A stretch of DNA of 55,686 bases from Candidatus Woesearchaeota archaeon (lineage in GTDB: Archaea; Nanobdellota; Nanobdellia; Woesearchaeales; ARS49), in contig JACQMS010000006.1 of the NCBI GenBank assembly GCA_016203445.1, positions 1 through 55,686 of the forward strand. Reading direction: 5' to 3'. Made by a program: the position numbers and the translations under genes. The notes beneath the pieces were generated by a model, which was not told the origin of the DNA, did no database searches, and worked only from the letters and a program-made list of their open reading frames with translations. Shown one piece after another: positions 11,735-55,686 of the stretch (position 1 is its first letter; every line of letters begins with the position of its first letter).

Positions 11735-11745
11735 GAAATTATTAT

Positions 11746-12825: not shown

Positions 12826-12836
12826 AAAATTATCAC

Positions 12837-13004
12837 TCACTCGTCAAATCTTCCTTTGACTTTAAATTGTTCACCATTGAGAACTGTATTGATGTCAGAA
12901 TTGTAAGATTTTTTAACGCCCTGCTTTAACGTCCACATTCTGAGATACCTGCTAGCAAGATAGTACAAAAGTACAACAAACACCGCCAACGCAACTTTGT
13001 TCAT
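12837..13004 (-). CDS. Small membrane-anchored protein (55 aa, not in ORF track)
   Basis: MNKVALAVFVVLLYYLASRYLRMW...KVKGRFDE; AGGAG upstream; fills the dnaK-dnaJ gap. Confidence 0.6.
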   Translation of the reverse strand: MNKVALAVFVVLLYYLASRYLRMWTLKQGVKKSYNSDINTVLNGEQFKVKGRFDE

Positions 13005-13019
13005 GCGGGGCTGCTCCTG

Positions 13020-14930
13020 CTACTCCTTTTTTTTCTTGCCATGATTCTTATTTTTCACAACTTCTGCATCAACAACATCCTCATCATTTAAGTCACTTTC
13101 GGTTTTACCTGCACTGCCAGCACCAGCATTACTACCGTCGCCTGCTTCACTTTTATTTTTAGACTGTTGTTCGGCTGAAGCTTTTTGGTACAACTCTACA
13201 GCAAGCTCTTGAGAGACCTTTGTTAGTTCATCAGTGGAACTTTTTATTTTCTCCAAATTTTTATTCTTCTCACTTAAGAGTTTTTTTAGCCCCTCAAGCT
13301 TGTTCTTAACATTTTTTATTTTATCATCGGAAACTTTGCCCTCAAACTCTTTTAGAGATTTTTCGGTAGTGTACACTAGAGAGTCAGCAGTATTCACAAC
13401 TTCAACATCTTGCTTTCTTTTCTCATCATCTTTAGCATTAGCTTCTGCCTCCTTTCTCATGCGCTCAACTTCTTTCTCATCAAGCTTATGAGGCGAAGTT
13501 ATCTGTAAACTTTGCTGTTTTCCAGTTCCCAAGTCTTTAGCTGAAACGTTTAAAATTCCGTTGGCATCAATATCAAAAGAGACTTCTATTTGAGGAATGC
13601 CTCTTGGAGCCGAAGGGATACCAACAAGGTCAAACTGTCCCAAAAGCTTGTTATCAGAAGCCATAGCCCTCTCGCCTTGAAAAACCCTTATAGTAACGGC
13701 CGGCTGGTTGTCAGCAGCAGTGCTGAAAACTTGCTTTTTCTGTACAGGAATTGTAGTGTTTCTTTCAATAAGCTTTGTGAAAACGCCTCCGAGAGTTTCA
13801 ATGCCCAAACTCAAAGGAGTAACGTCCAGCAATAGGACGTCTTTCACGTCACCAGCAAGAACTCCTGCTTGAACGGCCGCTCCAGCAGCTACACACTCCA
13901 TAGGGTCAACGCCCCTCTCAACCTTCTTACCGACCCAAGACTCAAGATTTTTTTGAACAACTGGCATCCTTGTAGGGCCGCCAACAAGAATAACCTTGTC
14001 AATATCTGAAACTTTAAGGCTCGCATCCTTCAAAGCTTGATCAACACTCTTCTTGCATCTCTTAACAAGATCATCAACAAGCTCCTCAAGCTTCGCCCTA
14101 GACAATTTCATAGACAAGTGCTGGGGACCCTTGTTAGTAGCAGTTATATAAGGAAGGTTAATATCAGTCTCTAAAGTTGTAGAAAGCTCAATCTTGGCTT
14201 TTTCAGCGGCCTCCCTAACTCTCTGCATAGCAACATTATCATCATTCAAATCCATGCCTGTCTGATCCTTGAAGTGTTTAATTATGTGATTAATAACTAC
14301 ACTATCCATATCAGTACCACCAAGCTGAGTATCGCCAGAAGTGCTCTTAACTTCGAAAACACCGTCGCCAAACTCCATAATAGTAACATCCAAAGTTCCG
14401 CCGCCAAAATCAAAAACCAATATTTTTTGCTCCTTACCGTCCTTATCTAAACCGTAAGCAAGAGCGGCTGCTGTGGGCTCATTGATTATTCTAATAACTT
14501 CCAAACCTGCAATAGTTCCCGCATCCTTTGTGGCTTGTCTTTGATCATCATCAAAATACGCAGGAACGGTTATAACAGCCTTGTCAACTTTAGTTCCCAG
14601 GAACGCTTCAGAGTCCCTCTTAATTTTTTGAAGAATGAACGCGCTAATCTGTTGAGGAGTGTATTCCTTACCGTGAATATTATACTTAAAATTAGTTCCC
14701 ATCTTTCTCTTAGCAGCCATTACGGTGCCTGCAGGATTTGTTACTGCCTGCCTTCTAGCAGGTTCGCCAACAAGAACAGTTCCATCATTAAGAAAGCTGA
14801 CAACTGAAGGGAAAGCTTTGCCATAAAGTGATGCTCCTTCAGCGCTAGGAATAATTTTAGGCCTTCCACCTTCCAAAACTGAAGCCGCGCTGTTCGATGT
14901 TCCAAGATCAATACCTATAATTTTTGTCAT
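13020..14930 (-). CDS. dnaK: Chaperone DnaK
   Basis: [25 protein letters not shown] and other Hsp70 signatures. Confidence 0.99.
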
Positions 14931-14931
14931 T

Positions 14932-15531
14932 TTATTTACCTCCTACCAAATTTTGTTCTATTTTTTGTTTTGATTTTGATATAACGACCCTTGCATGTCT
15001 TACAACCTTGTTTTTCAACTTGTAGCCTGCTTGAAGCTCCTCAATAACTGTATTATCAGAATTTTTTGATTCTTTAGTAAGCAAAGCTTCATGTTCATCA
15101 ACATTGAATTCTTTGTTCAAAACTTCAAGTCTTTGCAAACCTTCAGACTCCAAAACTTTTCTTAACTGGTCAAAAATCATTCTAACACCTTTTGCGTGTG
15201 AATCGTCACCAATATTTTTTAATGCCTGCTCAAAACTGTCAAGAACGCTTAAAAGTTTCAGAACTAGCTTTTCTGAAGCATACAACGCGTATTCCTGCCT
15301 TTCATTCTCAACTCTTTTTGAATAGTTTTCGAATTCTGCTTGCAATCTTTTCAAAGTGTTAGTGTACTCTTCAAGAGTTTTAGTCTTAGACTCCAACTCT
15401 TTCTTAATATCAAGCAAAGTTTTTTCTGAAAATTTTTCGGTATTTTCAACGTCCGCAGCTATATGCTGGGCCACTTTTTCCGCGCCCTTCATTATGCGTT
15501 CTTCAACGGATGAAACATTGTTTTTAGTCAT
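14932..15531 (-). CDS. grpE: Nucleotide exchange factor GrpE
   Basis: [36 protein letters not shown]. Confidence 0.95.
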
Positions 15532-15694
15532 AATTCAACATGGTAGAAAGCAAAAGTATATAAATCTGTCGATTTTAGGTCAACGTAAAAGTGATTTAAT
15601 GCTGTTATGAAGCAAGGAGTTATGAAAAAAAACGCTACTAATAACACCATTTTTATATACGTTCAATTTACAAAAACTTTTTCGAGGTGAAGCA

Positions 15695-15892
15695 ATGAAA
15701 AAAATAGTTTTGATCAGTGTGATGCTTTTAGTTGTAGTAGTAATACTTGCTGGGTGCGGTTCAAAAACTAACGCTATCCAAGGCTCTCAAGCAACTGCAG
15801 AAAGTTCAACAACGCCGCAAAAAGTTGTTCAAAACAAAACAACACCAGAAATACCAGAGCCTACAACTATTAGTATAATTGTAGAAGAGTGA
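15695..15892 (+). CDS. Small putative lipoprotein
   Basis: GAGGTG SD; MKK-hydrophobic-LAGC lipobox; T/P-rich tail. Confidence 0.6.
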   Translation: MKKIVLISVMLLVVVVILAGCGSKTNAIQGSQATAESSTTPQKVVQNKTTPEIPEPTTISIIVEE

Positions 15893-15975
15893 ACGTAACA
15901 ATTGTGATGACGTAATCGAATGTATATGTCTTGAGACAACACATTTTATAAATATTCATATTTTTCGTAATATCT

Positions 15976-16677
15976 ATGTTTCAGGAAAAGGATTATGATT
16001 GGCGCGAACACGACCCATATGCACTTGCAAAGTTTGAAGTGGTTAAATCATGGCTTCCAAAAATTCCTCGTTCTATTCTTGATGTTGGGTGTGGCAGTGG
16101 AGATTTTTCTGTTGCCCTTGCGCGTGATGGTTTTCATGTTATTGCTCTTGACCCTAATGCAAAGGCTTGCTCTATGGTCCGCGCAAAGGCGGAAAGTTTT
16201 GGTTTGAAAAACATTATGGTTATTCAGAAAGATTTTTACGATTTTTCTTCGAGAGAAAAATTTGATATTGTTCTTTCTCTGGACGTTTTAGAGCATGTTT
16301 CTGATGAAGAGAAGTTTATTCTTCATGTAAAAAAGTTATTGCACGAAAATGGTTCTTGGATTCTTTCAGTTCCAGCATTACAATTTTTGTACGGGAATTT
16401 TGATGTTCTTCTTGGCCATCGCGAGAGGTATGATAAGAGCAAGATTCGTCGTGGTGTTGGGAAGTATTTCAGTATTGCAAGACTGAGGTATTTTGGTTTT
16501 TTTTTCATCCCTCTTGCTCTTTTGTATAGTAAGGTGTTGAAAACTTCGTATCCTGTGCAGAAGGGTTCTAGTGGTTTTCTTGGCGCGATTATGAGAATTT
16601 TGTGCAGGATCGAGAGAACTGTTCCTGCACCTCTTGGTACTTCTCTTCTTGCAAAAGTTAAACACAAAAAATCATAA
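15976..16677 (+). CDS. Class I SAM-dependent methyltransferase
   Basis: ILDVGCGSG, DVLEH, SVPA...GHRERY. Confidence 0.88.
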   Translation: MFQEKDYDWREHDPYALAKFEVVKSWLPKIPRSILDVGCGSGDFSVALARDGFHVIALDPNAKACSMVRAKAESFGLKNIMVIQKDFYDFSSREKFDIVLSLDVLEHVSDEEKFILHVKKLLHENGSWILSVPALQFLYGNFDVLLGHRERYDKSKIRRGVGKYFSIARLRYFGFFFIPLALLYSKVLKTSYPVQKGSSGFLGAIMRILCRIERTVPAPLGTSLLAKVKHKKS

Positions 16678-16986
16678 AAATCCGCAAATCAGACGCTTTC
16701 TGATTTGCGGATGTCAAGAAGCACTAGTCAAAGACCAGCGGTATGTTGCTTAACGCAATAGCGCACAGTGGTTCTTGATCATGCTCAGAAACTGCTCTTC
16801 AAATTTAAATGTCAAAAAAAGAGCAGTTTCCGACATGCAAAAAACGGCGCCGCATGTCAAGAACTACGGTTCTTGATCATGATCAGAAACCGCTTTCTCA
16901 CTTCAAACTTAAGCGAGAATGTTATGAATAGCGGTTTCTGACATCTCCAAACTAAAGTATTGAGTTTTGGCGCCGTTTTTCCGCAT
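16672..16986. mobile_element. Composite nested palindromic element: host element with two double-hairpin units (16711-16836, 16854-16944)
   Basis: Units ATGTCAAGAA...GTTCTTGATCATG(C/A)TCAGAAAC...GTTTC(C/T)GACAT; the outer parts match 45721-45808 in reverse complement. Confidence 0.75.
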
Positions 16987-16991
16987 AATAA

Positions 16992-17699
16992 TTATACTTT
17001 TTCTTGTTGCATTCTTAATTTTTCATATGCACCTATAAATTCTCTTTGTGTTTCAATACTTCTTGGATGGTGTAATGTTTTTTTTAGCACATCTGGTGTA
17101 ACCGTTAGTATGTCCGCGCCTGTTCTTCTCGCGTATGTTACATCCAGTACTTGTCTCAGACTTCCCACAATTATTTGGGTTTTTGTTCCTGATTGTTTGA
17201 ATTGTTCAACGATTTCCTGCACCACTGTAACAGGGTCATATCCCTGATCTGCAACTCTGCCCCAGAATATGCTTGCGTATGTTGCGCCTGCTTGTGACGC
17301 CCCGTACATTTGTCCGGGTGTCATACAGCAAGTTACATTTGTTGGTATTCCTTCTTCTGAAAGCAGTGAGACGATATCAAGATTTGTTCTTCCTGTTGTG
17401 CTTTGTATCGGTACTTTTATGACAACAGGATTTTTTATTCTCTCAATACCATCGCCCCATCCTCTATACTTTTTTGCTTCTTCAATCATTTGTTCAGGAT
17501 CTTCGCTCGTCAGTTCTACACTTACATGCCAAGGAATTACTCTTGCAATATTTTGTATAATTTCTGGCGAGTATTGTACACCTTCCTTTGCCATTATGAG
17601 CGGATTTGTTGTGCATCCTCTGACGAGGGGTCGCACATCTTTCAGTTCCTTCAGATTTGCAGTGTCTGCATAGTAAACTGTCATATTATTTTCCTCCAT
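16992..17699 (-). CDS. tal: Transaldolase (TalC/FSA fold)
   Basis: ADTA, TTNP, IKVP, NVT; SVEL (Glu) and SIFWGR (Phe) favour transaldolase over FSA. Confidence 0.88.
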   Translation of the reverse strand: MEENNMTVYYADTANLKELKDVRPLVRGCTTNPLIMAKEGVQYSPEIIQNIARVIPWHVSVELTSEDPEQMIEEAKKYRGWGDGIERIKNPVVIKVPIQSTTGRTNLDIVSLLSEEGIPTNVTCCMTPGQMYGASQAGATYASIFWGRVADQGYDPVTVVQEIVEQFKQSGTKTQIIVGSLRQVLDVTYARRTGADILTVTPDVLKKTLHHPRSIETQREFIGAYEKLRMQQEKV

Positions 17700-17733
17700 T
17701 TATTTTTTTCTACTCTCTTCATTTTTCCTTATT

Positions 17734-18369
17734 TTATTGACGTAATGATATTCCCTGCTCTTTTGCTTTTGTGTGCTCAGCTATCTTTTCTATTATTCCA
17801 AAAACGATGCTGTGAAAAAGTACTGCGTGGAGTCCTTCAACGTGCGGTGTTGATTTTATTGGCACTACTATTGGTATATCTGCAAGTGTTGCGAGTGGAC
17901 CTCCATCAAATCCTGAGAATGCTATTGTAGTTCCGCCATTATCTTTTGCGTATTGTACTGCTTTCAGAAGATTTTGTGACCACGCTCCTGCTTTTTCACT
18001 GCCCGATCCTCCATGAACACTGAATGCTACAACTATATCTCCAGCTTGAAAATACGTTTTTAATTGCCCCGTGTAGAGTTCTCCCCATCCTTGATCATTC
18101 ACCCACGCGCTAACTAGAGGTATATTATCTGAAAGAGGCAATGCACGTATTCCTTTGTTTTCTCCTACAAGTATTGTTTTTGAGAGGTCCGCTGCAAAAT
18201 GTGTAGCATTTGATGCACTGCCTCCATTGCCTATAACAAATACTTGCTTGTTATCTTTCCAAGCTTGAAAAAGCACATCGCTTGCGCGAACAATTTTTTC
18301 CTGGTCAACGGTTGCAAGTGCTGAATGAGCGTTCGCCATGAATTGCTGGATATATTGTTGTGATGTCAT
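17734..18369 (-). CDS. gmhA: Phosphoheptose isomerase (SIS domain)
   Basis: GNGGSASNATHFAADL, ND, GFDGG, PHVEGLH. Confidence 0.85.
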   Translation of the reverse strand: MTSQQYIQQFMANAHSALATVDQEKIVRASDVLFQAWKDNKQVFVIGNGGSASNATHFAADLSKTILVGENKGIRALPLSDNIPLVSAWVNDQGWGELYTGQLKTYFQAGDIVVAFSVHGGSGSEKAGAWSQNLLKAVQYAKDNGGTTIAFSGFDGGPLATLADIPIVVPIKSTPHVEGLHAVLFHSIVFGIIEKIAEHTKAKEQGISLRQ

Positions 18370-18387
18370 TTTTTGTCCTTTTATTTT

Positions 18388-19383
18388 TTATGCATTGAAT
18401 AATACTCTTGTTCCGTCCCAATCAAACTTGAAAGGCATATATTGTAACCCTTCTTTTGTCATAGCATCTACGAACTGTTTTTGGTTTGTATCGCAGTAAA
18501 ACATGAAGAATCCTCCTCCTCCTGCGCCCATAATTTTTCCTCCAACTGCACTGTTTGCTATGGCATGATCATACCACTTGTCTATTTGGGGGTCAGTCAT
18601 TTTGTCAGATAATTTTTTCTTAACATCCCAGTGAACGTTCATCCATTCCCCAAATCTTCTTGTATTACCTGTTTCGAGTGCTTTTCTTATCTCTTCACCT
18701 ATTTCTTTTATTTGATGCATTCCTTCTATCCCTCTTGATGGATCTTTTTGCGCTGTATCTTTTTGATTTTGCAGTACTTCTGACGCGTTTCTTTTTATCC
18801 CTGTATAGAATAAGAATAAATTATTTTCGAGTTCTCTTATTGTCTGAGCACTAAGTGTGAGAGGTGTTGTTATAACACTTCCATTTTTGAATATCGTGTA
18901 ATGGTTTATTCCTCCAAATGTTGCGGCGTACTGATCTTGTTTTCCTATTGGTTGTTTGAGCGCATTGATTTCTACTTGGCATGCTTCTTCTGCGAGTTTT
19001 TGGAATGAAACGTACTCTTTCTTGTATATATGAAGTGCATGAAGAAGGGCAACGGTAAAAGTACTTGATCCTCCAAGTCCAGTATTTGATGGAATATCTG
19101 AAAAAGATACTATTTCTACACTCTTTGTTACTCCTAAAAGTTTGAGTGCTTCTCTTACTCGTTCATTTTGTATAGTGTTGATATCTGTTGTTTCTTCTGT
19201 CTTGGAGTATTTCACCAATACTTCATCATGAAAATTTCTGTGCTTGAGTACTATCGTGATATACTTGTCTATTCCTGCTGATATAAACGAGCCCTTGTGT
19301 TGGGAATAGTACCATGGTAGATCTGTTCCTCCGCCCCCTATTGGTAATCTTAATGGTGTTCTTACGACTATCACTCTTTTCAC
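18388..19383 (-). CDS. hddA: GHMP kinase, D-glycero-alpha-D-manno-heptose-7-phosphate kinase-like
   Basis: PLRLPIGGGGTD, PSNTGLGGS, GKQDQYAATFGG, GKIMGAGGGGF. Confidence 0.85.
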   Translation of the reverse strand: MKRVIVVRTPLRLPIGGGGTDLPWYYSQHKGSFISAGIDKYITIVLKHRNFHDEVLVKYSKTEETTDINTIQNERVREALKLLGVTKSVEIVSFSDIPSNTGLGGSSTFTVALLHALHIYKKEYVSFQKLAEEACQVEINALKQPIGKQDQYAATFGGINHYTIFKNGSVITTPLTLSAQTIRELENNLFLFYTGIKRNASEVLQNQKDTAQKDPSRGIEGMHQIKEIGEEIRKALETGNTRRFGEWMNVHWDVKKKLSDKMTDPQIDKWYDHAIANSAVGGKIMGAGGGGFFMFYCDTNQKQFVDAMTKEGLQYMPFKFDWDGTRVLFNA

Positions 19384-19507
19384 CTAAAAATAAAAAGTTC
19401 GAACATCATTTATAAAACTTGTGAAGAAAAGTTTATAAATAGAAAATGATTGCTCCGAAATTGGGTGAGCATTATATATATAATGTATTGCACCATTTTT
19501 TGGGGTT

Positions 19508-20437
19508 ATGAAAATGGTTGATTTGTTAAAAGTTTCTTATCTTGTTCCTGAGATTCAGCGTCAGGTTTCAAGACATCATTTGAACGTTTTTGACGGGAGT
19601 TTTGTTCTTAAGAATGGTGGAAAAGATTACACGACGGATGTTGACCGTATTGTTGAACAAGAGCTGTCTTCTCGTCTTCATGAAGAATTTCCAGGAACTG
19701 CTGTTCTTGGTGAGGAAGAAACTTCTGCCGATGAGAATTCAAGATTTATGTGGGTTATTGATCCCACAGATGGAACTGCTGTTTTTGCGACTGGTGGTGA
19801 ATATTTTAGTTCTTCTATAGCCTTGATTGATAGAGAAAATGGTACTGTTCCTTTTGGCAGCGTGTATCAGCCAAGGAGAGGCAGACAGTTTATTAGAAAT
19901 AATTTATATTGTGGTGCACCGGATATATGCGTAAGGTTGAGAATTCAGGTATTGAGTGAATATCAAGATGATTTTGTGGTATTCCGTCCGGAGCGTTCTC
20001 AATCTTCGAGCATGACTGATATGTTAGTGTGCGCAGTTGCGACTTCAAAATACTTGCCTCAACATCCAGGATTGAAAGAGAAACTTGATAGATTGTTTAG
20101 AAAAGAGAGAGTTCCAATTATTGATAGAGAATATGGTATGATAAACGCAAAACCTGCATCTGGTTCTTCTGCCTTGTACTTGTGTGACACTGCTTCAGGC
20201 AACAGGCACGGGGCGATTCTTTACTTTCAGAAGGCGTGGGATCTTGCTGTTGGCGCGTTATTTGCGAGAGATGCAGGATGTGTAGTCACGTGCAGTACTA
20301 AGGGTATCGAGTTAGAGGGCGAAGATATAGAAAAAGTTATTGCCGGATGCTCAAGGAATACACTCGTGAATTGCGCAGTGTATGCAAACCAGGACGTTAA
20401 AAATACTGTGGAAAGAATGATGAACACAAACTTTTAA
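19508..20437 (+). CDS. Inositol monophosphatase-family phosphatase
   Basis: TTDVD, GEE, WVIDPTDGT, WDLAVG. Confidence 0.85.
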   Translation: MKMVDLLKVSYLVPEIQRQVSRHHLNVFDGSFVLKNGGKDYTTDVDRIVEQELSSRLHEEFPGTAVLGEEETSADENSRFMWVIDPTDGTAVFATGGEYFSSSIALIDRENGTVPFGSVYQPRRGRQFIRNNLYCGAPDICVRLRIQVLSEYQDDFVVFRPERSQSSSMTDMLVCAVATSKYLPQHPGLKEKLDRLFRKERVPIIDREYGMINAKPASGSSALYLCDTASGNRHGAILYFQKAWDLAVGALFARDAGCVVTCSTKGIELEGEDIEKVIAGCSRNTLVNCAVYANQDVKNTVERMMNTNF

Positions 20438-20458
20438 GAATAATCATGTTTTACATCA

Positions 20459-21232
20459 ATGTTTATGAATGCAATGATATTATGCGCAGGTCTTGGCTCA
20501 AGATTAAGACCTATTACAAACACTATTCCAAAGCCAATGATTCCAATTGCGGGAAAGCCATTGCTTGAACATCAAATTGAGTGGTTCAAAAAATTCGGCA
20601 TAACAAATATTGCTATTAATTTGTTCTATCTTTCTGATAGTATTAAGAACTATTTTGGTTCTGGCAAAAATTTTGGTGTAAACATTTTGTATTCCCCGGA
20701 ACCTGAACTTTTAGGAACTGCTGGTGGAGTGAAAAAAGTTGATAATATATCAAAAGGGTTTTTTAGCGGAACATTCGTGGTCTATTATGGTGATAATTAT
20801 ACTGATTTAGATTTGAATCAAATGCTTGACTTTCACAAAAAAAATTGCGCGGTTGCGACGATTTTGATGAGGAAGCGTCCTCGTGGCAATAAAGTATCAA
20901 GCATTATAGAGCTTGATGATATTGGACGGGTAAGAACTTTTGTTGAAAAACCGTCACAAGAGTTAACGTTGTCTCAACCAGATGTTGTTCTCTCAAATAG
21001 TGGTATTTATGTTCTCGAACCCGAAGTATTAAAATACATTCCTCAAAATAAGTTTTTTGATTTTGGTTCTGATGTTTTTCCTGTATTGTTATCTGAAGGA
21101 AAGAAAGTTATGGGTTTTGTGAGCGGCACATTCTGGCGTGAACTTGGGACTCTTGAAAAGTATGAGAATGCAAAGAAAGATATAGAAGAAAGATTCAAGA
21201 TCAACAAAGAGGATATAAAAATGGATTTATGA
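20459..21232 (+). CDS. Sugar-1-phosphate nucleotidyltransferase (HddC/mannose-1-P guanylyltransferase-like)
   Basis: LCAGLGSRLRPITNTIPKPM, LGTAGG, YGD, FVEKP. Confidence 0.88.
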   Translation: MFMNAMILCAGLGSRLRPITNTIPKPMIPIAGKPLLEHQIEWFKKFGITNIAINLFYLSDSIKNYFGSGKNFGVNILYSPEPELLGTAGGVKKVDNISKGFFSGTFVVYYGDNYTDLDLNQMLDFHKKNCAVATILMRKRPRGNKVSSIIELDDIGRVRTFVEKPSQELTLSQPDVVLSNSGIYVLEPEVLKYIPQNKFFDFGSDVFPVLLSEGKKVMGFVSGTFWRELGTLEKYENAKKDIEERFKINKEDIKMDL

Positions 21233-22020
21233 GTTTTTGTTGGGGGAAAAATCATAGTATGCCAAACATTTTTGATTTAACGAAAGGTCCAGTATCAATA
21301 GAAGGTATGGAGTTTTTCTATGGCGCGGAGAGTTCCGGGCTATTAGAAGAAAATAGTTTTGAGGAGATAACATACATGTATGCTCCGAATCCTGCACTAC
21401 TGCTTCATCAAGGTTCGGAAATACTAATTCCGAGGCACAGTGTTACAGTTATAAGACCCAATACAAGTGTTCATTTGATAGTGAACAATCTTGAGAATGA
21501 GGTTTCGTCCTTATTCTTGAGGATTCCTGAAAAGTTTCCATCAGAACTCCAGGAACGCATGGAAAAACTGAACATGCAGTATACGTTGTCAAGAGCAAGG
21601 ATAAATAGTGATGTAAGAGTTTTCTCTTTTGGTGATATTACAATATATACCGATGCATCGAGAGAAGATACAGAGTCTTTGAAAAGAGGGATATGGAAAA
21701 AACCCGGATGGTTTACAGATTATTCAAAAGCACAAACTGCGGGGATTGCAGTCGCTCAATGGCGCGCATATCCTGAAGGAAAAGAAACATATCACTATCA
21801 CAATATTCTCTCAGAGTCATTTGTTGGTATTTGTGGAGAGGCAGATTTTAGAATTGGTGATAGAAGACATGTGCTTAAACCAGGAATACTGTTGTTCTTT
21901 CCTCCGGGTGTTGCCCATGAATTATGTAATATACGTACTGGAACCAGAAATATGTATAGTCATTTCTCTTGCCAATATCCCTCGCTTGCGGATGAAGGAA
22001 AAATAATTATTAAAGAGTAA
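21229..22020 (+). CDS. Cupin-domain protein
   Basis: HYH-x4-E and PPGVAH cupin metal motifs in the C-terminal part. Confidence 0.7.
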   Translation: MSFCWGKNHSMPNIFDLTKGPVSIEGMEFFYGAESSGLLEENSFEEITYMYAPNPALLLHQGSEILIPRHSVTVIRPNTSVHLIVNNLENEVSSLFLRIPEKFPSELQERMEKLNMQYTLSRARINSDVRVFSFGDITIYTDASREDTESLKRGIWKKPGWFTDYSKAQTAGIAVAQWRAYPEGKETYHYHNILSESFVGICGEADFRIGDRRHVLKPGILLFFPPGVAHELCNIRTGTRNMYSHFSCQYPSLADEGKIIIKE

Positions 22021-22107
22021 AGTACTGATAATGAAAAGAAAATTGATTAACAAATATCGTTGAAAAAAGTGGGGAATAATAAGATTTTTATAGAGAAAGA
22101 TATACGC

Positions 22108-22851
22108 ATGATCATGGTTGAAATCTCTATTGTTATTCCGGCATATAATGAGGCAAATCGTTTGCCTGCAACTGTTGAAAGAATTATTCAATTAATAAGT
22201 TCTATGAATATTGAATATGAATTAATTCTCGTGAATAATGCAAGCAAGGATGGCACTTTAGAGTATATGAATTCTTTTGCTTCAGCACACAAAAATATAA
22301 ATGTGAAAGTTTTGAGCACTCCAACCAAGGGAAAGGGTTTGGCAGTGAAAACTGGCATGCTTTCCGCGGTAGGAAAATATGTTTTATTTACTGATGCAGA
22401 TCTTTCTACTCCGATTGAAGAAATTGAAAAATTATTGCCCTTTGTAAAAGAAGATTATGATGTCGCGTACGGTACTAGGGCAATGAAGGAGTCTGTAATA
22501 GTAACTCCCCAACCTTTGCATCGCCGCCTTCTTGGCACTGCGTTAAAGGTTATTCTTTCTTTTCTGATTTTTACTCTTCCTCCAAGACCAACTGATACAC
22601 AATGTGGTTTTAAGATGTACAAAAGAGACGCGGTTAGATTGCTATTTTCTCGCCAAACTCTTGATGGAGGAATGTTCGATGTTGAAATTATATATATTGG
22701 CAGAAAACATCATTTAATGATGAAAGAAGTTCCTGTATTATGGGCTGATGATTCTAAGAATTCTAAGGTGAATATTTGGAAAAGCATGATAACAAACCCT
22801 GCAAAACTTGTAGGCATACGCTTGAAAGATATTTTGGGATATTACCGCTAA
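22108..22851 (+). CDS. GT2, dolichyl-phosphate beta-glucosyltransferase-like
   Basis: VIPAYNEANRL, GKGLAV, FTDADLSTP, DTQCGFK. Confidence 0.9.
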   Translation: MIMVEISIVIPAYNEANRLPATVERIIQLISSMNIEYELILVNNASKDGTLEYMNSFASAHKNINVKVLSTPTKGKGLAVKTGMLSAVGKYVLFTDADLSTPIEEIEKLLPFVKEDYDVAYGTRAMKESVIVTPQPLHRRLLGTALKVILSFLIFTLPPRPTDTQCGFKMYKRDAVRLLFSRQTLDGGMFDVEIIYIGRKHHLMMKEVPVLWADDSKNSKVNIWKSMITNPAKLVGIRLKDILGYYR

Positions 22852-22852
22852 T

Positions 22853-23329
22853 TTAAGATACGGGCAGTAATTGCAATACCGGCGTCAGAATGTAGAGAAC
22901 TATTCCTGTTGTGAGCATCCCAAGTATTATTCCGCCCGAAACATCTATGATATCGTGTCTTCTTAGTACTATTCTTGTCCAGCATATTGCCGCGGCAGAA
23001 ATTATTAGAAGAATGGTGACTGCAGTATTTTCATAAAATGATGCTGTAATGAGCGTGAGTGTTGTAACTCTCGATGCATGCAGGCTCGGAAATGATGACG
23101 CATCCAGTTTTTGTACTGTTGTAGTGTATAATTCTTCTTTTGGTCTTTTTTTAAAATAAAAGTATCTTATGAGCATTGTACTGCAATAGAATATGATGAA
23201 TCCTGAAGCCAGCTGGTATGATCGTAGCTCATAACCTGTGACAAAGAAAAGGATTGTAACTATTCCATATATTGGCAATCCCCCGAGTCCAGTTCCGTCG
23301 GTAATCCACTCTTTGTTCATAAAATTCAT
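22853..23329 (-). CDS. PAP2-family (polyprenyl-pyrophosphate) phosphatase
   Basis: RP, SFPSLH, TRIVLRRHDIIDV; several TM segments. Confidence 0.85.
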   Translation of the reverse strand: MNFMNKEWITDGTGLGGLPIYGIVTILFFVTGYELRSYQLASGFIIFYCSTMLIRYFYFKKRPKEELYTTTVQKLDASSFPSLHASRVTTLTLITASFYENTAVTILLIISAAAICWTRIVLRRHDIIDVSGGIILGMLTTGIVLYILTPVLQLLPVS

Positions 23330-23368
23330 TTAGAAATAATATACACATATTTATATGTTTCGAAGTTG

Positions 23369-24127
23369 TCATTTGTTATAAATTTGTTCTCGTCGTGTCT
23401 TTTTAATTGCAACCATGCCAAGCAAATGACCGCTTAATGCACTCATAAAAGTAGTTTTATTAATCCAAGTTTTGCTTAAAGTTCGTTGGAGTATGCGTGC
23501 ATAATAATCAGGATTCAGCCCGACGCAGTGTATAACTTCAAAGCCTGCATGCTGAAGCTCTTTTTTGAGTTGACTTTTTGTATATCTATACTGATAGAAT
23601 ACTGCGCCACGTTTAAGCTGATATTTATTTAGAATATAGCGTAATGGCCAAAATAGTTTTTGTGCAATATTAGCATAAGGAACAGTTATAAGAAACAATC
23701 CATTTGGTTTAAGTACTCGATATGCTTCAGCAAGAATTTTTTGTCGATCATTAAAGTTGGTGTAATGCTCAATAACTCCCGGGCTATAGTATGTATCAAA
23801 GAAGTCATTTTTGTAAGGGAGATTAAAAAGATCTCCCTTGACAATTCTTTTTGATATTTCTGGAAAAAATTTGCGTGCAGAACGAACTGCTTTTGTGCTG
23901 TAATCAATGCCATAAGAAGTTATTCCACGGGTATGAAGATCATATGAATATTGGCAGACACCACAGCCCGCTTCAAGAAATTTTCCTCGCGTGTATGTAC
24001 GAAGAAATCGCGCTACATGATCGCCCGAGAGTTTATTAAGCGTTTTTTGGCGGTCAACTACAGCATACTGAGTTGACCAAAAATCCGCATCTGGACCATA
24101 CAAAAGCTTGCGTACCTGCACAATCAT
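23369..24127 (-). CDS. Class I SAM-dependent methyltransferase
   Basis: FLEAGCG, GVIEHY, RVLKPNG; ATG 24127 (the track extension crosses a repeat). Confidence 0.85.
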   Translation of the reverse strand: MIVQVRKLLYGPDADFWSTQYAVVDRQKTLNKLSGDHVARFLRTYTRGKFLEAGCGVCQYSYDLHTRGITSYGIDYSTKAVRSARKFFPEISKRIVKGDLFNLPYKNDFFDTYYSPGVIEHYTNFNDRQKILAEAYRVLKPNGLFLITVPYANIAQKLFWPLRYILNKYQLKRGAVFYQYRYTKSQLKKELQHAGFEVIHCVGLNPDYYARILQRTLSKTWINKTTFMSALSGHLLGMVAIKKTRREQIYNK

Positions 24128-24228
24128 AATCAAAGTAGTTGGCAGATAAACTATATAAAATCTTTGGATCAACAACCTTGGCGTGAAAATCTGAGTATGA
24201 ATTGGATTGTTGGCGAGAGTATTAAATG

Positions 24229-24341
24229 ATGTCAAGAACCGCCGGGCTAAAGCCCGGGGCGTGAGGTTCTTGATCATGATCAGAAACCGCCTTCTTACTC
24301 CGAGCCGAAGCAGGAAGATTGCGAATGGCGGTTTCTGACAT
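24229..24341. mobile_element. Double-hairpin palindromic element (MITE/REP-like)
   Basis: ATGTCAAGAACC...GGTTCTTGATCATGATCAGAAACCGCC...GGCGGTTTCTGACAT; first loop has CCGGGCTAAAGCCCGG; 1 bp from the FkbM stop codon. Confidence 0.8.
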
Positions 24342-24342
24342 T

Positions 24343-25224
24343 TCACAATATCAGAAATGGCAGGTGTTCACGAAGAAGTGTGCGGCTATTCCTGTTGGCG
24401 AGGAGTACATTAATGTGTCGTCCAGTTAAACTTTCGGCGATAATTTCTTTGTCTGTAGCGAAACGCACTCGGCGTTTTTGTCCGTCAATGATGTAGAGCT
24501 CAAAATTATAAAGATGTATTATGCTTAGAAATTCTTCTACTGATGCGCCCGCAGCAGCGAGCAGCTCTTTTGAGCATTCAGCAATAATTATCATAGTATT
24601 ATTTGTTTTAATAAGTTTTTTCATGCCGCGAAGAACTTCACATTCATATCCTTGAACATCTATTTTTACCACGTCAAGACGCTTGTTTCTGAATAGTACA
24701 ATATCTAAAGAGCATATTTTTACAGGCACGTTTGCATGAGAAGAATGTTTTGTAATTCTATTATCTCCGCGATTGACAGTATTTAAAAGCAATTGGCCAT
24801 GAGAAGTTTTAGAGCCTAATGCAAATTTATACAGAGAAACATTTTTTAAATTGTTTTGTTTTACGGTGCTTTCTAAAACTATAAATTCCCGTGGGGATGG
24901 TTCAAAAGAATATACTTTTCCGGTTGGCCCGGCAAATTTCGCACAAGAAATAGTATATAAGCCAATATTTGCTCCTATATCTGCAACAAACATTCCTGGT
25001 TTTACTATTCTTCGTATTACTTCCTGCTCGAATCCCTCCCATAGAGAATACTTCCATAGCAAGAGCGCAAAATATCGATCAAGAGATCGAGCTTCAAAAA
25101 TCATTCCTTGTATAATAATCGTATATCTTTTTGATGGAAGAAAACCGTCAGCCTTAGAAAACAGCCAATTCACAAGTTTAGACTTTTCAAGTTTTAGAAC
25201 AATAGATTCAATAGAAAATATCAT
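24343..25224 (-). CDS. FkbM-family methyltransferase
   Basis: DIGANIG, FEPSP, KIDVQGYE. Confidence 0.9.
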   Translation of the reverse strand: MIFSIESIVLKLEKSKLVNWLFSKADGFLPSKRYTIIIQGMIFEARSLDRYFALLLWKYSLWEGFEQEVIRRIVKPGMFVADIGANIGLYTISCAKFAGPTGKVYSFEPSPREFIVLESTVKQNNLKNVSLYKFALGSKTSHGQLLLNTVNRGDNRITKHSSHANVPVKICSLDIVLFRNKRLDVVKIDVQGYECEVLRGMKKLIKTNNTMIIIAECSKELLAAAGASVEEFLSIIHLYNFELYIIDGQKRRVRFATDKEIIAESLTGRHINVLLANRNSRTLLREHLPFLIL

Positions 25225-25279
25225 GTATCTGCGGGAATTTCGAAATGTTTAAAAACTTTCGTACTGCACCACCAGCATT

Positions 25280-26701
25280 ATGGGGGCTTATCAAAAAGAT
25301 GTTCTTTCAGATTTTTATGATTCTCTTGCGATAAAATATGAAAAGAGAGGCGCATCGCGCAAATATTATCATAATCAGCTTTCGAAACTATTAAGATTTC
25401 TTATTCCTCCAGCTATGCACGTTTTAGAGTTAGGTTCTGGAACGGGAAATTTGCTTAGCTCAGTGAATCCTAAAAATGGTGTTGGAATAGATAGTAGCCG
25501 CGGAATGAATGCTTATGCCAAAAAAAAACATCCTGCACTAAACTTTATTTTTGCAAATTTAGAAACATATGTTCATACAAAAAAGTATGATTATGTGATT
25601 CTCTCAGATACTGTTGATGTTCTAGATGATGTTCTTCTCGTTCTGAAAAATACGCAAAAGGCGCTCAAACGAGATTCGCGGGTTATTATCACATATTATA
25701 ATAATTTGTGGCAGCCAGTTATTAATTTTGCCGAAAACTTTGGTTTTAAAGATAGAGCCAGGGTGCACAATTGGTTCTCGAAAGACGATCTAAAAAATCT
25801 TTTATATCTCGCAGGATACGATGTTATATCAACCGGGCAAATTTGTTTACTTCCGGTTTACATTCCGGTAATTTCAACAATTCTGAATAAATATTGCTCA
25901 GAACTGCCAATTTTAAAAAGATTTTGTTTTATACAGTATATTGTTTCAAGGAGTGCGCCAAAGCCATTTTTGCGGAAATCTTCTGTTAGCGTTATAATCC
26001 CAACTTGGAATGAGGTTGGTACTATAGATACTGCAATAAAAACTATTCCTGTTATGGGAAGCGGTACAGAACTAATATTTGTTGACAATCACAGCACTGA
26101 TGGAACAAAAGAGAAGATAGAAGAATACATGACTGTTTACAAAAATAAAAATATAAAACTTATTATGCAAATTCAAAAGAAGGGAAAGGCAGTTGCAGTA
26201 TATCAGGGATTTGATTCTGCGAAGGGTGATATAGTCATGATTTTGGACTCTGATCTGACTGTTCAGCCGAAGGAGCTTCCAAAATTTTACGATGCAATAG
26301 TTGATGGCAAAGGAGAATTTATCAACGGGTGCCGTCTTGTGTATCCTATGGAGGAAAAATCCATGCAAACAATAAATTATATTGGAAATAAATTTTTCAG
26401 CATGACATTTAGCTGGCTTTTAAATCAGCCTGTAAAAGACACGCTTTGTGGTACAAAGGTTCTTACGAGGCACTCTTATGAAAAAATTAAGGCAGGACGC
26501 GAGTATTTTGGCAACTTCGACCCTTTTGGAGATTTTGATCTTCTTTTTGGAGCTTCAAAGTTAAATTTGAAAATAGTTGATATGCCTATTAGGTACAAGG
26601 AAAGAACTTATGGAGATACTAAGATTCATCGATGGCAGCACGGTTTGCTCCTTTTGAAGATGTGTGTATACGCATATAAGAAGCTTAAGATTCGCTGGTA
26701 G
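25280..26701 (+). CDS. Methyltransferase-GT2 glycosyltransferase fusion
   Basis: VLELGSGTG at the N-terminus; VIIPTWNE, LDSDLTV, DTLCGTK, DPFGDFDLLFGA at the C-terminus. Confidence 0.88.
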   Translation: MGAYQKDVLSDFYDSLAIKYEKRGASRKYYHNQLSKLLRFLIPPAMHVLELGSGTGNLLSSVNPKNGVGIDSSRGMNAYAKKKHPALNFIFANLETYVHTKKYDYVILSDTVDVLDDVLLVLKNTQKALKRDSRVIITYYNNLWQPVINFAENFGFKDRARVHNWFSKDDLKNLLYLAGYDVISTGQICLLPVYIPVISTILNKYCSELPILKRFCFIQYIVSRSAPKPFLRKSSVSVIIPTWNEVGTIDTAIKTIPVMGSGTELIFVDNHSTDGTKEKIEEYMTVYKNKNIKLIMQIQKKGKAVAVYQGFDSAKGDIVMILDSDLTVQPKELPKFYDAIVDGKGEFINGCRLVYPMEEKSMQTINYIGNKFFSMTFSWLLNQPVKDTLCGTKVLTRHSYEKIKAGREYFGNFDPFGDFDLLFGASKLNLKIVDMPIRYKERTYGDTKIHRWQHGLLLLKMCVYAYKKLKIRW

Positions 26702-26705
26702 ATGT

Positions 26706-28334
26706 ATGATAAAAAAATCTGTTTTGAAGAAATGCCTGATTTTGTTCATCATTTTGCTTGTTGCATTCTTAGTAAGAAGTTTTCAGTATCAAGATAGGGG
26801 CATTATTAGTTATGATGAGTATGGGTATGTTAGTCAGGGGCATTGGACGGCGCAATTTATTGTTCTTTCATTGGAAAAGGTGTATTCTGTTATTTCTCAT
26901 CCTGAGGATGCAAGACAAATTTTGAAGATGATACCTTCAGAAGTATCGTCGCTGGAAGGTGTTCCTTCAATTGTATCGAAGCCATTGTTTGCATACACGT
27001 TGGGAATATTTTATCTTTTGTATGAGGATAGTATACCCGCTGCCATTCTTTTGAATTCTATGCTTGGCGCTATTATAATTTTACTTATTTATTATGTTGG
27101 AGTTTTTCTTTTTGATGAAAGAACGGGTTTTATTGCAGCAATTCTTGGGATTTTTAATCCGATGCTTATACAGTACTCACAACAGGCAACAAGTGAGAAT
27201 CTTTCCACTGCTCTTTTTCTTATTGGATTTATTTTTCTTATAAGCGATAATAAATTCAAATATCAGTTAACTGGTATTTTTTATGGTCTGGCGTTCACTG
27301 CCAATTTACGGGTTTTGGTAATTGAAGTCGTCACAATAGGAACTCTTCTTTTATACAATTTTTTTACGCGAAGAGAAACTTTTTTTACTGCAGTTAAAAA
27401 CATTCTTAAAAGCTTGCTGATGGGTGGTATACCAATAATTATTTTTGAGTTTATTGATCATATGCTTATACTTGCATTTAAAAATATAACAAGAACGCTT
27501 TACCAATATAACACATATTTTGAACAACTCGTGAGGCATTTTTTGTTGCTTAGTGAGAATCAGGGAGTTCGAAACTGGCAGTACATATTGCTCTTCTTCA
27601 AAGAATCTTTGAGCATACCAATTACTCTGCTTGCAGTTATAGGAATATATTATTTTAATAAAGAGGGGTTGAACAGGAAGATGGCAGTGTTGCTGGCTGG
27701 GGCGGTTCTCCCGTTGTTATTTTTTACAATAGTAAACTATAAATCACTTAGATTTTATTTTGTTGTCGTGCCATTTTTAATTTTGTGTGCAGCGCATGCA
27801 ATAAATAGTTTTTCATTATACGTTTTTCGGTGGAAAAATTGGGCGGTATTTGTTTTTATTATGGTTTCATTTGTTGCAGCCATTCCAAGCATATATAATG
27901 TTATGGCTGTAAAAAGCGCAACACCTGATGCTTTGGAATTCATTTATGATCATGGGGGCTCCAGATATCAATCGAATATTCCTTTTTACACATTTGAATC
28001 TGAAAGGCTTCCGCGAAATAATGTTTCAGAATTATTCCGGCTTTGTAATGAGAGAAATGCCTGTTATGTTATTAGCTATCTTGTGCATACCGGGCTGAGA
28101 CCAGAATATGCAAGATCCGGATTTAATTATAATATGTCTCTTTATTTACAGAATCATTGTGCACCGGAGGCAACATTTAAAAATAAGTATGGCGAGATAA
28201 ACTATTACTATTTCGAAAATAATGGTGATTATTCAGTAGCGGGAAATGATGCCTATGATTATTTTGCTGAAATAAATGTTTACAATTTAAGGAACTGTGC
28301 GTTGTCTAAAAATGAGGAGAAAGTTTTTGGGTGA
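26706..28334 (+). CDS. GT-C (PMT/ArnT-like) membrane glycosyltransferase
   Basis: R...YDEYGY after TM1, KP, SE, many TM helices, RYF-like LRFY. Confidence 0.75.
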   Translation: MIKKSVLKKCLILFIILLVAFLVRSFQYQDRGIISYDEYGYVSQGHWTAQFIVLSLEKVYSVISHPEDARQILKMIPSEVSSLEGVPSIVSKPLFAYTLGIFYLLYEDSIPAAILLNSMLGAIIILLIYYVGVFLFDERTGFIAAILGIFNPMLIQYSQQATSENLSTALFLIGFIFLISDNKFKYQLTGIFYGLAFTANLRVLVIEVVTIGTLLLYNFFTRRETFFTAVKNILKSLLMGGIPIIIFEFIDHMLILAFKNITRTLYQYNTYFEQLVRHFLLLSENQGVRNWQYILLFFKESLSIPITLLAVIGIYYFNKEGLNRKMAVLLAGAVLPLLFFTIVNYKSLRFYFVVVPFLILCAAHAINSFSLYVFRWKNWAVFVFIMVSFVAAIPSIYNVMAVKSATPDALEFIYDHGGSRYQSNIPFYTFESERLPRNNVSELFRLCNERNACYVISYLVHTGLRPEYARSGFNYNMSLYLQNHCAPEATFKNKYGEINYYYFENNGDYSVAGNDAYDYFAEINVYNLRNCALSKNEEKVFG

Positions 28335-53159: not shown

Positions 53160-53295
53160 ATGTCAAGAACCACTGGTCAAAGACCGATAGCATGTTGCTT
53201 AATGCAATGGTGCACAGTAGTTCTTGATCATGCTCAGAAACCGCCTTCTTGCTACGAGCGGTAGCGAGGAAAATGTGAATGGCGGGTTCTGACAT
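53160..53295. mobile_element. Double-hairpin palindromic element (MITE/REP-like)
   Basis: ATGTCAAGAAC...GTTCTTGATCATGCTCAGAAACCGCC...GGCGGGTTCTGACAT. Confidence 0.8.
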
Positions 53296-53375
53296 TTCAC
53301 AAAACAGCCAGAAATTTTTAAAACGCATTACGCATTGGTAAGGTTTAAAAAGGGGCTATTTTCCTCCAAAGGACT

Positions 53376-54307: not shown

Positions 54308-55354
54308 TTATTTAATTATTTTCTGAATTTTGTTGCACAATTGATAAGTATTTGCATGCATTGCGTACGCTTTCCACCCACACAAGATTTCAAGAATAGT
54401 TTCATAACTATTGTTATTCTGTTTGTACATATCGAGAAATAAATGTATTTTTGAAAATATTTTTCTAATATTTCTTTTTCGAATCCTTTTATGATAATAA
54501 AAAATAGCGTATCCTACAAAATGTATGCCGTTCTTTAATGGAGTTATATTGCATTTTTGAGGGTGAAGTTCAAGTTTCAACGTTTTAAGAAAAGTATCAA
54601 TTTTTAATTTATATTCTTGTAACACTCTTCCTGAACGGTGCAGTATCACAAAATCATCAACATAACGAACGTAATACTTTATCTTCATAACCTGTTTGAT
54701 GAATGCATCGAGTTCGTTCAGATAAACATTTGCAAAGAACTGGCTTGTCCAATTACCAAGAGGCATCCCTTTTCCATCGCGTCCAGAGTTATAATTCTGA
54801 AGAAGTATTCTCAAGAGCCACAACAGTTCCTCATCTTTAATTTTTTTTGAAAGTATCTCGATTAGTACGTCATGATCAACAGTGTCAAAATAGTGTCTGA
54901 TATCTGCTTTGAGTACATAGCCCATAACATCATTTTTCGTTTTTGCATCTGGTCTGAGTACACCGTTTCTTGTAACTTTGTGTAAATATTTTTCTAAACG
55001 TTTCACCGCAGGCAGTGTTCCTTTGCCCCTGCGGCTTGCGTAACTATCAAAAATAAATCGTGGCTCATAAATTGGTTGTAGAACATTCACGAGAGCATGA
55101 TGTACTATCCTATCACGAAAATCACTAACACAAATGGTTCTAGTTTTTGGGTCTCTAAGAATAAAAGTTTTCATAGGTTGTGGCATATATGTTTTGTTTT
55201 TGAGTTCTAAGTGCAATCTAAATATGTTAAGGATATGATTTTTGTGAAACTCTTCAATGGCAGGAGTATTTTTGTGTCTTCTTGCATTCCAGTACGCTGT
55301 TTGTAATGATGATATACTTATGAGCTGTTTATATAATTTTTTGTACGTTTTCAT
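54308..55354 (-). CDS. Reverse transcriptase, DGR class
   Basis: PKTRTI...FRDRIVHHA, SYASRRGKG, KADIRHYF, GMPLGNWTSQFFANVYL (LG..SQ), YVRYVDDF. Confidence 0.92.
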   Translation of the reverse strand: MKTYKKLYKQLISISSLQTAYWNARRHKNTPAIEEFHKNHILNIFRLHLELKNKTYMPQPMKTFILRDPKTRTICVSDFRDRIVHHALVNVLQPIYEPRFIFDSYASRRGKGTLPAVKRLEKYLHKVTRNGVLRPDAKTKNDVMGYVLKADIRHYFDTVDHDVLIEILSKKIKDEELLWLLRILLQNYNSGRDGKGMPLGNWTSQFFANVYLNELDAFIKQVMKIKYYVRYVDDFVILHRSGRVLQEYKLKIDTFLKTLKLELHPQKCNITPLKNGIHFVGYAIFYYHKRIRKRNIRKIFSKIHLFLDMYKQNNNSYETILEILCGWKAYAMHANTYQLCNKIQKIIK

Positions 55355-55397
55355 AAACAAACCCCAAGTCCTTCTCTTTTTTTTAGAGACTGAGAGT

Positions 55398-55496
55398 TAT
55401 TCCGCAAGCCCGGCCATTGTTGTTGAAGTTGCTGTATGCATTGACATTGTTCAAGTTGTTGTTGAAGTTGTCGACACCCCCAACACGGAACAACCG
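55398..55496 (-). ncRNA. DGR template repeat (TR)
   Basis: Non-coding, just upstream of RT; reads RLFRVGGVDNFNNNLNNVNAYSNFNNNGRACGI with 11 AAY codons; ends approximate. Confidence 0.85.
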
Positions 55497-55686
55497 AGTG
55501 TGTAGCTCTGTACACTATAAATAACAATCACCGCAGTTCCAAGACTTTCACTTTACAGTTACTCGTTGTCACCGCTGAATTTTATAGCGAAGATCAAATT
55601 TGGTGCTCTCGCCATAGTGACAGAACGTGTAGCTCCCAAGGATGTTTTTATTCGCAGGTTTTGCGACAGTACATCAGGACTTAGGG

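Follow-up and report, generated by a model that had tools for sequence, protein, structure and literature searches.

A probable family of non-autonomous mobile double-hairpin DNA elements in Woesearchaeota-type archaea

The repeated structures described here probably belong to a family of non-autonomous mobile double-hairpin DNA elements carried by Woesearchaeota-type (DPANN) archaea. This reading is built on features observed directly: the architecture of the copies, its conservation and covariation, an intergenic position, presence/absence and nested insertion footprints, a sequence motif on one flank only, and identical modules combined with different partners. By analogy with IS200/IS605 or REP elements, we infer that movement proceeds through single-stranded hairpins and is carried out by an enzyme that is yet to be recognised. 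In the mechanism that we propose, the four short arms and the palindromic centre, which are kept across genera and families, would be the recognition sites of this mobilising enzyme, and the hairpin interiors (3 to ~100 nt) would ride along as passengers. Whole dimers would insert immediately 5' of a T-N-T-Y-A-R motif without target-site duplication. We further propose that the interiors reassort because all copies share identical arms, and that they might do so by two routes. In the first, copies at different places in the genome would undergo homologous exchange or gene conversion via the shared arms. In the second, one element would insert into another, and the centres or 3' arms that are thereby duplicated would serve as direct repeats for a deletion. 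Either route would swap a loop.

Architecture and genomic setting of the elements

The window is the whole stretch of DNA analysed (55,686 nucleotides), and it constitutes the entire contig C28 of the host genome, G000 (815,648 bp in 37 contigs, ~37% GC, 92% complete). A preliminary description of this DNA had reported four copies with common stems and a centre that varies between A and C at one site, and all four are present where it placed them (Table 1). The centre, GTTCTTGATCATG(A/C)TCAGAAAC, is a palindrome of 22 bases that occurs four times in the window with no mismatches and not once in 100 dinucleotide shuffles. The repeat unit as a whole is a two-hairpin dimer that can be written as TGTCAAGAAC, left loop, GTTCTTGA(K)CATG(M)TCAGAAA(Y), right loop, (R)TTTCTGACA, and the copies in G000 follow the consensus TGTCAAGAAC - left loop - GTTCTTGA(T/G)CATG(A/C)TCAGAAAC - right loop - GTTTC(T/C)GACA. 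Loops measure from 3 to ~100 nt, and the junction between the two hairpins of a dimer is always CATG (rarely CACG, CGTG or TATG).

Table 1. Positions of the dimers, their parts and associated hairpins in the window
Feature	Position	Strand	Description
Reported dimer	53161..53294	+	L1 (49-nt left loop) + R1-type (43-nt right loop)
5' arm of reported dimer	53161-53170	+	
Left loop of reported dimer	53171-53219	+	
Centre of reported dimer	53220-53241	+	
Right loop of reported dimer	53242-53284	+	
3' arm of reported dimer	53285-53294	+	GGTTCTGACA, 1 mismatch
3' flank of reported dimer	53295..53300	+	TTTCAC, fits the landing motif T-N-T-Y-A-R
Dimer of the commonest G000 type	24230..24340	+	L2 (26-nt left loop) + R1 (43-nt right loop)
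Dimer L1 + R3	16712..16835	+	49-nt left loop, 33-nt right loop; 5' arm TGTCAAGAAG
89-bp dimer L3 + R5	16855..16943	+	4-nt left loop, 43-nt right loop; inside another hairpin's loop; site empty on C24
Separate hairpin module	16680..16711	+	ATCCGCAAATCAG...CTGATTTGCGGA; precedes L1-type dimers at several loci
Host hairpin	16840..16980	+	AAAAACGGCGCC ... GGCGCCGTTTTT; its loop holds the 89-bp dimer

The termini of the element are TG...CA, with imperfect terminal inverted repeats (TGTCAAGAAC / GTTTCTGACA) that are complementary at 8 of 10 positions. A TGTC...GACA tag adjoins the stem at both element ends, and the hairpins begin 2 nt from those ends. Folding predicts two hairpins on both strands, with z scores from -4.9 to -8.2 and none of 200 shuffles folding as well. 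The few mismatches in the arms are mirror-symmetric about the centre, and no single strand is named by a bias of G.T over A.C. The preliminary description also held that every hairpin runs ATG...CAT. This is true of the four window copies; across the family the leading A is part of the flank and not of the element, given that the base before TGTCAAG is A in 17 of 28 distinct flanks in G000 and in 25 of 69 distinct flanks elsewhere.

Collecting all copies, as had been suggested, yielded 42 centres in the 0.82-Mb genome at no more than two mismatches (a reversed-pattern control gave none), with reassorted modules among them. Both loops could be parsed in 31 of these 42 copies, the rest being truncated, nested or cut off by a contig end. 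Apart from a few singletons, the left loops of G000 form three classes, of 49 nt (L1), 26 nt (L2) and 4 nt (L3), and the right loops fall into a 43-nt class (R1, with its relative R5), a class of 47 or 54 nt (R2), a 33-nt class (R3) and forms of 11-13 nt. The nine L2+R1 dimers of the genome have a mean pairwise identity of 92%, and lone single hairpins are rare. It had been noted that the left loop of the copy at 53160 matches that of the copy at 16711 and its right loop that of the copy at 24229. The loops do belong to the same types, with 39 of 49 and 36 of 44 positions identical, respectively. Those values place the match at the level of the class and fall short of near-identity, so the reported copy is a diverged L1+R1 member. 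The left loop of the copy at 16854, given earlier as only 4 nt, is indeed TACG.

Two sets of more distant relatives were also encountered. A diverged subfamily with a 3-nt left loop, the centre TCACGA and right arms TCAGCAAT...ATTGCCGA lies within a larger multi-copy repeat at four sites in G000 (C12:15530, C20:10444, C26:19595 and C30:3502). Another diverged dimer, with the compensated left arms TCAAAGG...CCTTTGA, is found at C8:4560-4860.

The four arm 8-mers occur 66-102 times in G000, as compared with ~16 expected from composition. The 42 centres group into 34 clusters that cover 4,456 bp, such that a tiny, streamlined DPANN genome spends ~0.55% of its DNA on these elements. Eight of the 34 clusters are found no more than 150 bp from the end of a contig; the repeats break the G000 assembly at these eight ends. 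All clusters are intergenic or fall in the first 6-180 nt of over-long maximal ORFs, as judged with a crude ORF caller. By the same caller, the 26 clusters with both neighbours called comprise 14 between co-directional, 6 between convergent and 6 between divergent genes. Because all neighbour orientations occur, the elements have no fixed relation to transcription. Avoidance of restriction sites was considered and set aside, since the ratios to Markov expectation in G000 (CATG 0.83, GATC 0.69) are unremarkable.

In the window, the gene for ribosomal protein L15e lies 81 nt downstream of the 53160 copy, and the dimer at 24230 sits between two minus-strand methyltransferase genes, where its flank TTTCAC (24341-24346) contains the stop codon of the upstream gene (24343-24345). 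For the downstream methyltransferase gene, the longest ORF (23369-24346, minus strand) traverses that whole element from a GTG start, and automatic gene callers may add ~40 repeat-derived codons to the protein at 24226-24346. The 314-bp spacer at 16678-16991, between convergent methyltransferase and transaldolase-family genes, consists entirely of hairpin modules, in the order short hairpin, L1+R3 dimer and hairpin with the L3+R5 dimer in its loop. For the annotation of DPANN MAGs, the family accounts for hairpin-rich spacers, for spurious ORFs across elements and for contig breaks.

Loop reassortment and the CATG junction

The earlier suggestion that these are non-coding elements made of two hairpin modules in several combinations is supported by identical loops with unrelated partners. 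For example, the left loop at C28:16771 is identical at 49 of 49 positions to that at C6:55105, and the right loops of the two copies are unrelated (R3, 33 nt, versus R2, 54 nt). Three L2+R1 copies (C28:24266, C16:7150 and C35:3213) share a 26-nt L2 loop with C30:25612 at 100% identity, and the right loop that follows is 11 nt long in C30:25612 as compared with 43 or 55 nt in the copies with the identical left loop. Furthermore, an identical 33-nt R3 loop stands behind both 4-nt and 49-nt left loops. Dispersed repeats with identical arms are in this way shown to yield new hairpin combinations.

The preliminary description attributed these combinations to a combinatorial non-coding system of hairpin cassettes that recombine at CATG; taken strictly, this would be a dedicated system in which cassettes are joined and exchanged by site-specific recombination. 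The modules do reassort, and the constancy of the intradimer junction speaks for such a system. Head-to-tail joins of two elements (GACA|TGTCAA) also recreate CATG, and two such joins (L133 and L165) occur among the 64 distinct 3' flanks from other genomes. However, the breakpoints that can be inferred lie on both sides of the A/C site, which is one base 3' of CATG and is the sole informative site of the centre. This site follows the left module in L1+R1 copies (C) and in a single truncated L2+R2-like copy (A), and it follows the right module in L2+R4 (C). Because it travels with either the left or the right module, the points of exchange are not fixed at CATG. The unit that moves is the whole dimer.

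Free combination of modules also fails to describe the data, as left and right classes are strongly linked. With loop classes that are rule-based and coarse (the rules misfile two G000 elements), L2 is paired with R1 in 21 elements of other genomes and with R2 or R7 in none, L1 is paired with R1 in 5, with R2 in 8 and with R7 in 6, and minimal left loops are paired with minimal right loops in 7. In addition, searches of G000 brought up neither a tyrosine nor a serine recombinase, and the scarcity of isolated single hairpins also counts against such a system. We consider recombination of cassettes at CATG very improbable. Exchange between shared arms, or nesting followed by deletion, explains the reassortment better. 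By comparison with bacterial BIME mosaics, reassortment looks like a by-product of dispersed repeats that share identical arms of 8-22 bp.

Conservation among relatives and footprints of movement

At no more than two mismatches, the centre is present in 14 of 60 relatives (control 0), a tally that takes in the unpublished genomes G011 and G026, neither of which is the basis of any specific claim. The holders are 12 of 36 genomes of the same family, together with one genome in each of two other families of the order. An exact-match scan in which each species was represented by a single genome yielded at least 104 loci, nearly all of them in MAGs labelled Woesearchaeota, Pacearchaeota, Nanoarchaeia, 'archaeon' or Methanosarcinales, and the MAGs with the last of these labels are probably mislabelled. 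Among the matches listed, three records are labelled bacterial, two of which have the centre only, without arms, and both outer arms are present in 73 of the 80 loci fetched. Viral contigs gave no matches to the centre. Copy numbers in other genomes reach 50 (G064) and 31 (G062).

The arms are nearly invariant across genomes, and the loops are mostly unrelated between genomes. Where stem positions do vary, pairing is kept. At the first variable pair of the right stem, 24 of 68 distinct elements have CG, 20 have TA, 13 GC and 10 AT, with one non-Watson-Crick pair, and the last arm pair is TA in 48 and CG in 16, with 4 exceptions. One genome has the compensated change from CATG...GACA to CACG...GACG. 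Across 32 L2+R1 elements from many genomes, compensated changes occur in the internal stems around conserved C-T(A/G)AA-G tips, as judged without a formal score from a MAFFT alignment that is not structure-aware. It is important to note that near-invariant arms across families and covarying L2+R1 stems exceed the conservation usual for decaying selfish DNA. This counts against the mobile-element reading, and would fit a host function too.

Evidence for movement comes from footprints within G000. On C24, a larger repeat is uninterrupted (...GCGCCGCA^TCTCCAAAC..., with GCCGCA^TCTCCAAAC at the junction), whereas its paralogues on C27 and C28 (16855-16943 of the window) carry the 89-bp L3+R5 dimer exactly at that junction point. 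This presence/absence difference may reflect insertion or precise loss, and, as far as the compared sequences indicate, the whole dimer behaves as an insertion. Contigs of two of four DNA runs, all four from one groundwater study, contain a joint that skips the 89 bases, with a 3-nt ambiguity, and this joint probably reflects the paralogous locus on C24. When contigs from these runs were compared over positions 7000-26999 of the window, none of the loci there showed an insertion polymorphism, and the contigs break at the repeats.

The second footprint involves an identical 138-bp dimer (L1b+R2a) that is nested in host elements, where it separates the TCAGAAAC arm from the right loop. Left halves of this arrangement are found on C10, C25 and C35, with three different host left loops, and right halves on C13, C24 and C35. 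The host right loop starts with TTTCCA where it is uninterrupted and with TTTCAA at the interrupted copy on C13. Intermediates of the route through nesting and deletion are also seen, with the orders L-centre-L-centre-R-arm-R-arm and L-centre-R-arm-R-arm, the latter partly resolved. There is no target-site duplication beyond an ambiguity of 0-3 nt in the two exact footprints.

Comparison with relatives supplied no clean orthologous empty site for the copies at 53160, 24229 or 16711. In G001, a genome of the same genus with 94% identity in the L15e protein, the spacer upstream of L15e has no copy of the element; the flanks there are conserved, and the spacer itself is unalignable and contains a different palindrome. 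When the 24229 and 16711 loci were used to search G001 and G002 DNA, all matches were to the repeats themselves. Metagenome contigs scanned with L15e gave five loci at 49-67% identity, none of them close enough for an orthologous site. The palindrome in G001 belongs to a second, unrelated repeat family of the type ...GGATTTCGACC...GGGTGCTTTCCACG, which fills the L15e upstream spacer of that genome (L086:1290-1460). In G000, an L2+R1 dimer lies inside a copy of this second family, just before TTCCGACC (C29, ~4090-4300), and spurious ORFs on C7, C29 and C32 translate the second repeat.

The sequence 3' of the element follows a pattern. The T that follows ...GACA is nearly fixed (22 of 24 distinct flanks in G000 and 59 of 64 in other genomes), and in the 64 flanks from other genomes it is followed by N, T (55 of 64), C (37) or T (18), A (51 of 64), and A (40) or G (17). 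The resulting pattern, T-N-T-Y-A-R, is the same in G000, and the 5' flank is only weakly biased, towards A. The motif exists before the element arrives: the empty site on C24 reads TCTCCA, and uninterrupted R2 loops start with TTTCCA. T-N-T-Y-A-R is therefore a target preference and not a part of the element. Because some right loops start with this landing motif (TTTCCA), elements land inside each other, and because the 5' end of the element, TGTCAA, fits the motif as well, occasional head-to-tail joins arise, with CATG at the seam.

A different reading takes the dimers for structured-RNA genes or modules, with specificity carried by the interiors. Such RNAs could be small regulators, hairpins that stabilise or terminate mRNAs, or double hairpins akin to guide RNAs. 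Very stable folds on both strands agree with this, as does covariation across genera in the stems and in the L2+R1 internal stems. The conserved apical C-T(A/G)AA-G loops, a conserved unpaired stretch in R1 and the Cbf5 domain (TruB_N) encoded in G000 point in the same direction. However, the Rfam search that the preliminary description had proposed gave nothing at the gathering threshold, and even at permissive thresholds the best hits were generic miRNA-type hairpins far below gathering scores. Further arguments against RNA genes are the near-identical copies at many loci (exemplified by the nine L2+R1 dimers), the presence/absence difference and nested insertions, a position that is not conserved in same-genus G001, and the occurrence of all orientations to neighbouring genes. 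Moreover, the structure is equally good on both strands, as DNA palindromes would give. On balance, we view an origin as RNA genes or modules as quite unlikely. H/ACA and C/D guide RNAs in particular were rejected from the sequence alone, given the long perfect stems, the many near-identical copies and the empty Rfam result.

The search for an enzyme and comparison with known repeat systems

Returning to the mobile-element reading, one point against it is that no mobilising enzyme was found in G000. In this genome, which is 92% complete and from which a repeat-flanked enzyme gene could be lost in assembly or binning, there was no match to Y1_Tnp (PF01797), the TnpB zinc ribbon, Phage_integrase, Resolvase, IS110 DEDD, rve or DDE_Tnp_1. 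With the controls for these transposase and recombinase profiles, between 6 and 14 of the 14 reference genomes gave a response, according to the profile used. The Y2_Tnp profile was silent in its control as well as in G000, so that its silence says nothing about this family. No Xer-type tyrosine recombinase of the Phage_integrase family was detected in G000, and its control responded in 14 of 14 reference genomes. Y1_Tnp is present in 15 of 60 relatives, yet in only 5 of the 14 element holders, and the richest holders (G004, G009 and G045) are without it. No element arms were found beside Y1 genes in the 12 Y1-gene loci inspected. The genes bracketed by pairs of elements in the three element-rich genomes G062-G064 (12 regions with 30 ORFs) are housekeeping genes or belong to no Pfam family.

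The REP sequences and BIME/REPIN mosaics of Enterobacteria and Pseudomonas are mobilised by RAYT (Y1 HUH) proteins, and the RAYT gene is typically flanked by its own REPs. These repeats have a GTAG-type tetranucleotide 5' of the stem and are, as a rule, species-specific. Such features are reportedly those described by Nunvar 2010, Bertels & Rainey 2011 and Ton-Hoang 2012. The elements of G000 resemble REP/BIME repeats in being short imperfect intergenic palindromes with tens of copies, in forming mosaics of hairpin types (42 centres in 34 clusters), in having a short conserved tag beside the stem, and in the absence of any target duplication seen. Unlike REPs, they have an archaeal host and a fixed two-hairpin dimer with a 22-bp palindromic centre, their dimer arms are the same across families of an order, their interiors reach ~100 nt, and their tag is TGTC at both ends rather than GTAG. 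Also unlike REP/BIME, there is no Y1/RAYT gene in G000 and no link to Y1 genes in relatives.

The elements share with IS200/IS605 and with transposase-less PATEs (palindrome-associated transposable elements) a hairpin at each end and no target duplication and, as in IS200/IS605, a short specific target motif flanks one end only (here, T-N-T-Y-A-R). The IS200/IS605 mechanism is said to be that given by He et al. 2015. Unlike in these systems, G000 has no TnpA/TnpB, and there is no parent IS with a Y1 enzyme that shares the dimer ends. Moreover, unlike in these systems, the dimer hairpins start at a distance of 2 nt from the ends, a conserved palindrome takes the place of the scar of an internal deletion at the centre, and the loops are variable cargo. 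Functionally, the family resembles REP/BIME mosaics and PATEs, yet lacks the Y1 enzyme that marks both.

Classical MITEs have terminal inverted repeats, a fixed-length target-site duplication and a DDE transposase. The present elements are MITE-like in their small size, multiple copies, intergenic position and lack of coding capacity, as well as in their TG...CA termini and imperfect inverted repeats. They differ from MITEs in the absence of target duplication from the two footprints and in the absence of rve and DDE_Tnp_1, the two DDE families searched, from G000. The preliminary description did not recognise the repeats as a named family, and this impression has stood: there is no Rfam match, and no published description of a double-hairpin family was found. 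The family may still be catalogued within a MITE census whose accessible text reports a 'Woesearchaea genome' with 105 MITEs per Mb and describes no family (PMC11602168).

Chenal et al. 2025 describe SRM/NTS repeats that are cut by Ssn GIY-YIG single-strand nucleases, and the hallmarks, as given in the accessible portions of that paper, are a small single-domain GIY-YIG (cd10448) gene that is usually flanked by the repeats and a motif that begins HGTCWY... (PMC11893778). Its discussion, in the same portions, mentions REP/BIME (PMC11893778). On this model, or on that of RAYT and REP, the hairpins would be targets of a site-specific single-strand nuclease or domesticated enzyme, kept by the host for genome dynamics, and their spread would be a side effect. 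Several observations fit this idea. The TGTC...GACA tag adjoins the stem at both ends, and the SRM as published in the text available is HGTC followed by a hairpin (PMC11893778). To go by the same text, the two systems also share hundreds of dispersed copies and a non-palindromic conserved flank that orients the repeat. The arms are, in addition, invariant over a large phylogenetic distance. Lastly, G060, a genome from this order, has TGTC...GACA palindromes of different sequence on both sides of a 93-codon GIY-YIG ORF (L216:1440-1900, on a contig whose archaeal origin is assumed), a layout like that published for bacterial Ssn genes and their repeats.

However, the published SRM search motif has no match on either strand of G000, as compared with 0-5 matches in 10 shuffles, and position 6 of the element is A where the motif calls for Y. 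The GIY-YIG profile (PF01541) has no match in G000, G004 or G009, and matches in only 4 of the 14 element-holding relatives. Three of the four best matches lie in frames of 222-533 codons, so most are not small Ssn-like proteins, and that of G001 alone is small (80 codons). As far as the accessible text goes, SRMs are described for bacteria only, and the word 'archaea' is absent from its main text (PMC11893778). We find it unlikely that the hairpins are nuclease targets of this kind.

After these comparisons, the family stands as a clear DNA signature, conserved over a wide range of genomes, whose insertion footprint is exact and for which the searches brought no enzyme to light. A more specific form of the mobile-element reading, which we offer tentatively as a possibility that is less probable than not, is that the arms and centre, unchanged over families and orders of DPANN archaea whereas all that lies between them varies, are the recognition sites of an undiscovered archaeal transposase or nuclease. 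This enzyme would be specific for hairpins or single strands, would be neither Y1/HUH nor GIY-YIG, and would move dimers to T-N-T-Y-A-R without duplication. If this is true, the elements would give access to the enzyme in the way that NTS repeats did to Ssn. It was reportedly by reasoning from the repeat that RAYT and, in 2025, the Ssn nucleases were found.

A reverse transcriptase encoded at the end of the window was also considered as a mobiliser and was rejected, as it is present in only 6 of the 14 element holders and absent from G009 and G045. Its ORF (RVT_1, 350 aa, 54308-55360, minus strand) lies directly downstream of an RT-16 RNA motif (Rfam RF03019, 77 bits) at 55497-55658, such that RNA and ORF together occupy 54308-55658. 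A second copy of the reverse transcriptase, 59% identical, is located at C26:25165-26187 of G000, and the gene is patchily distributed among relatives (16 of 60), often in several copies. The RT-16 RNA and the reverse transcriptase look like a small retroelement of their own.
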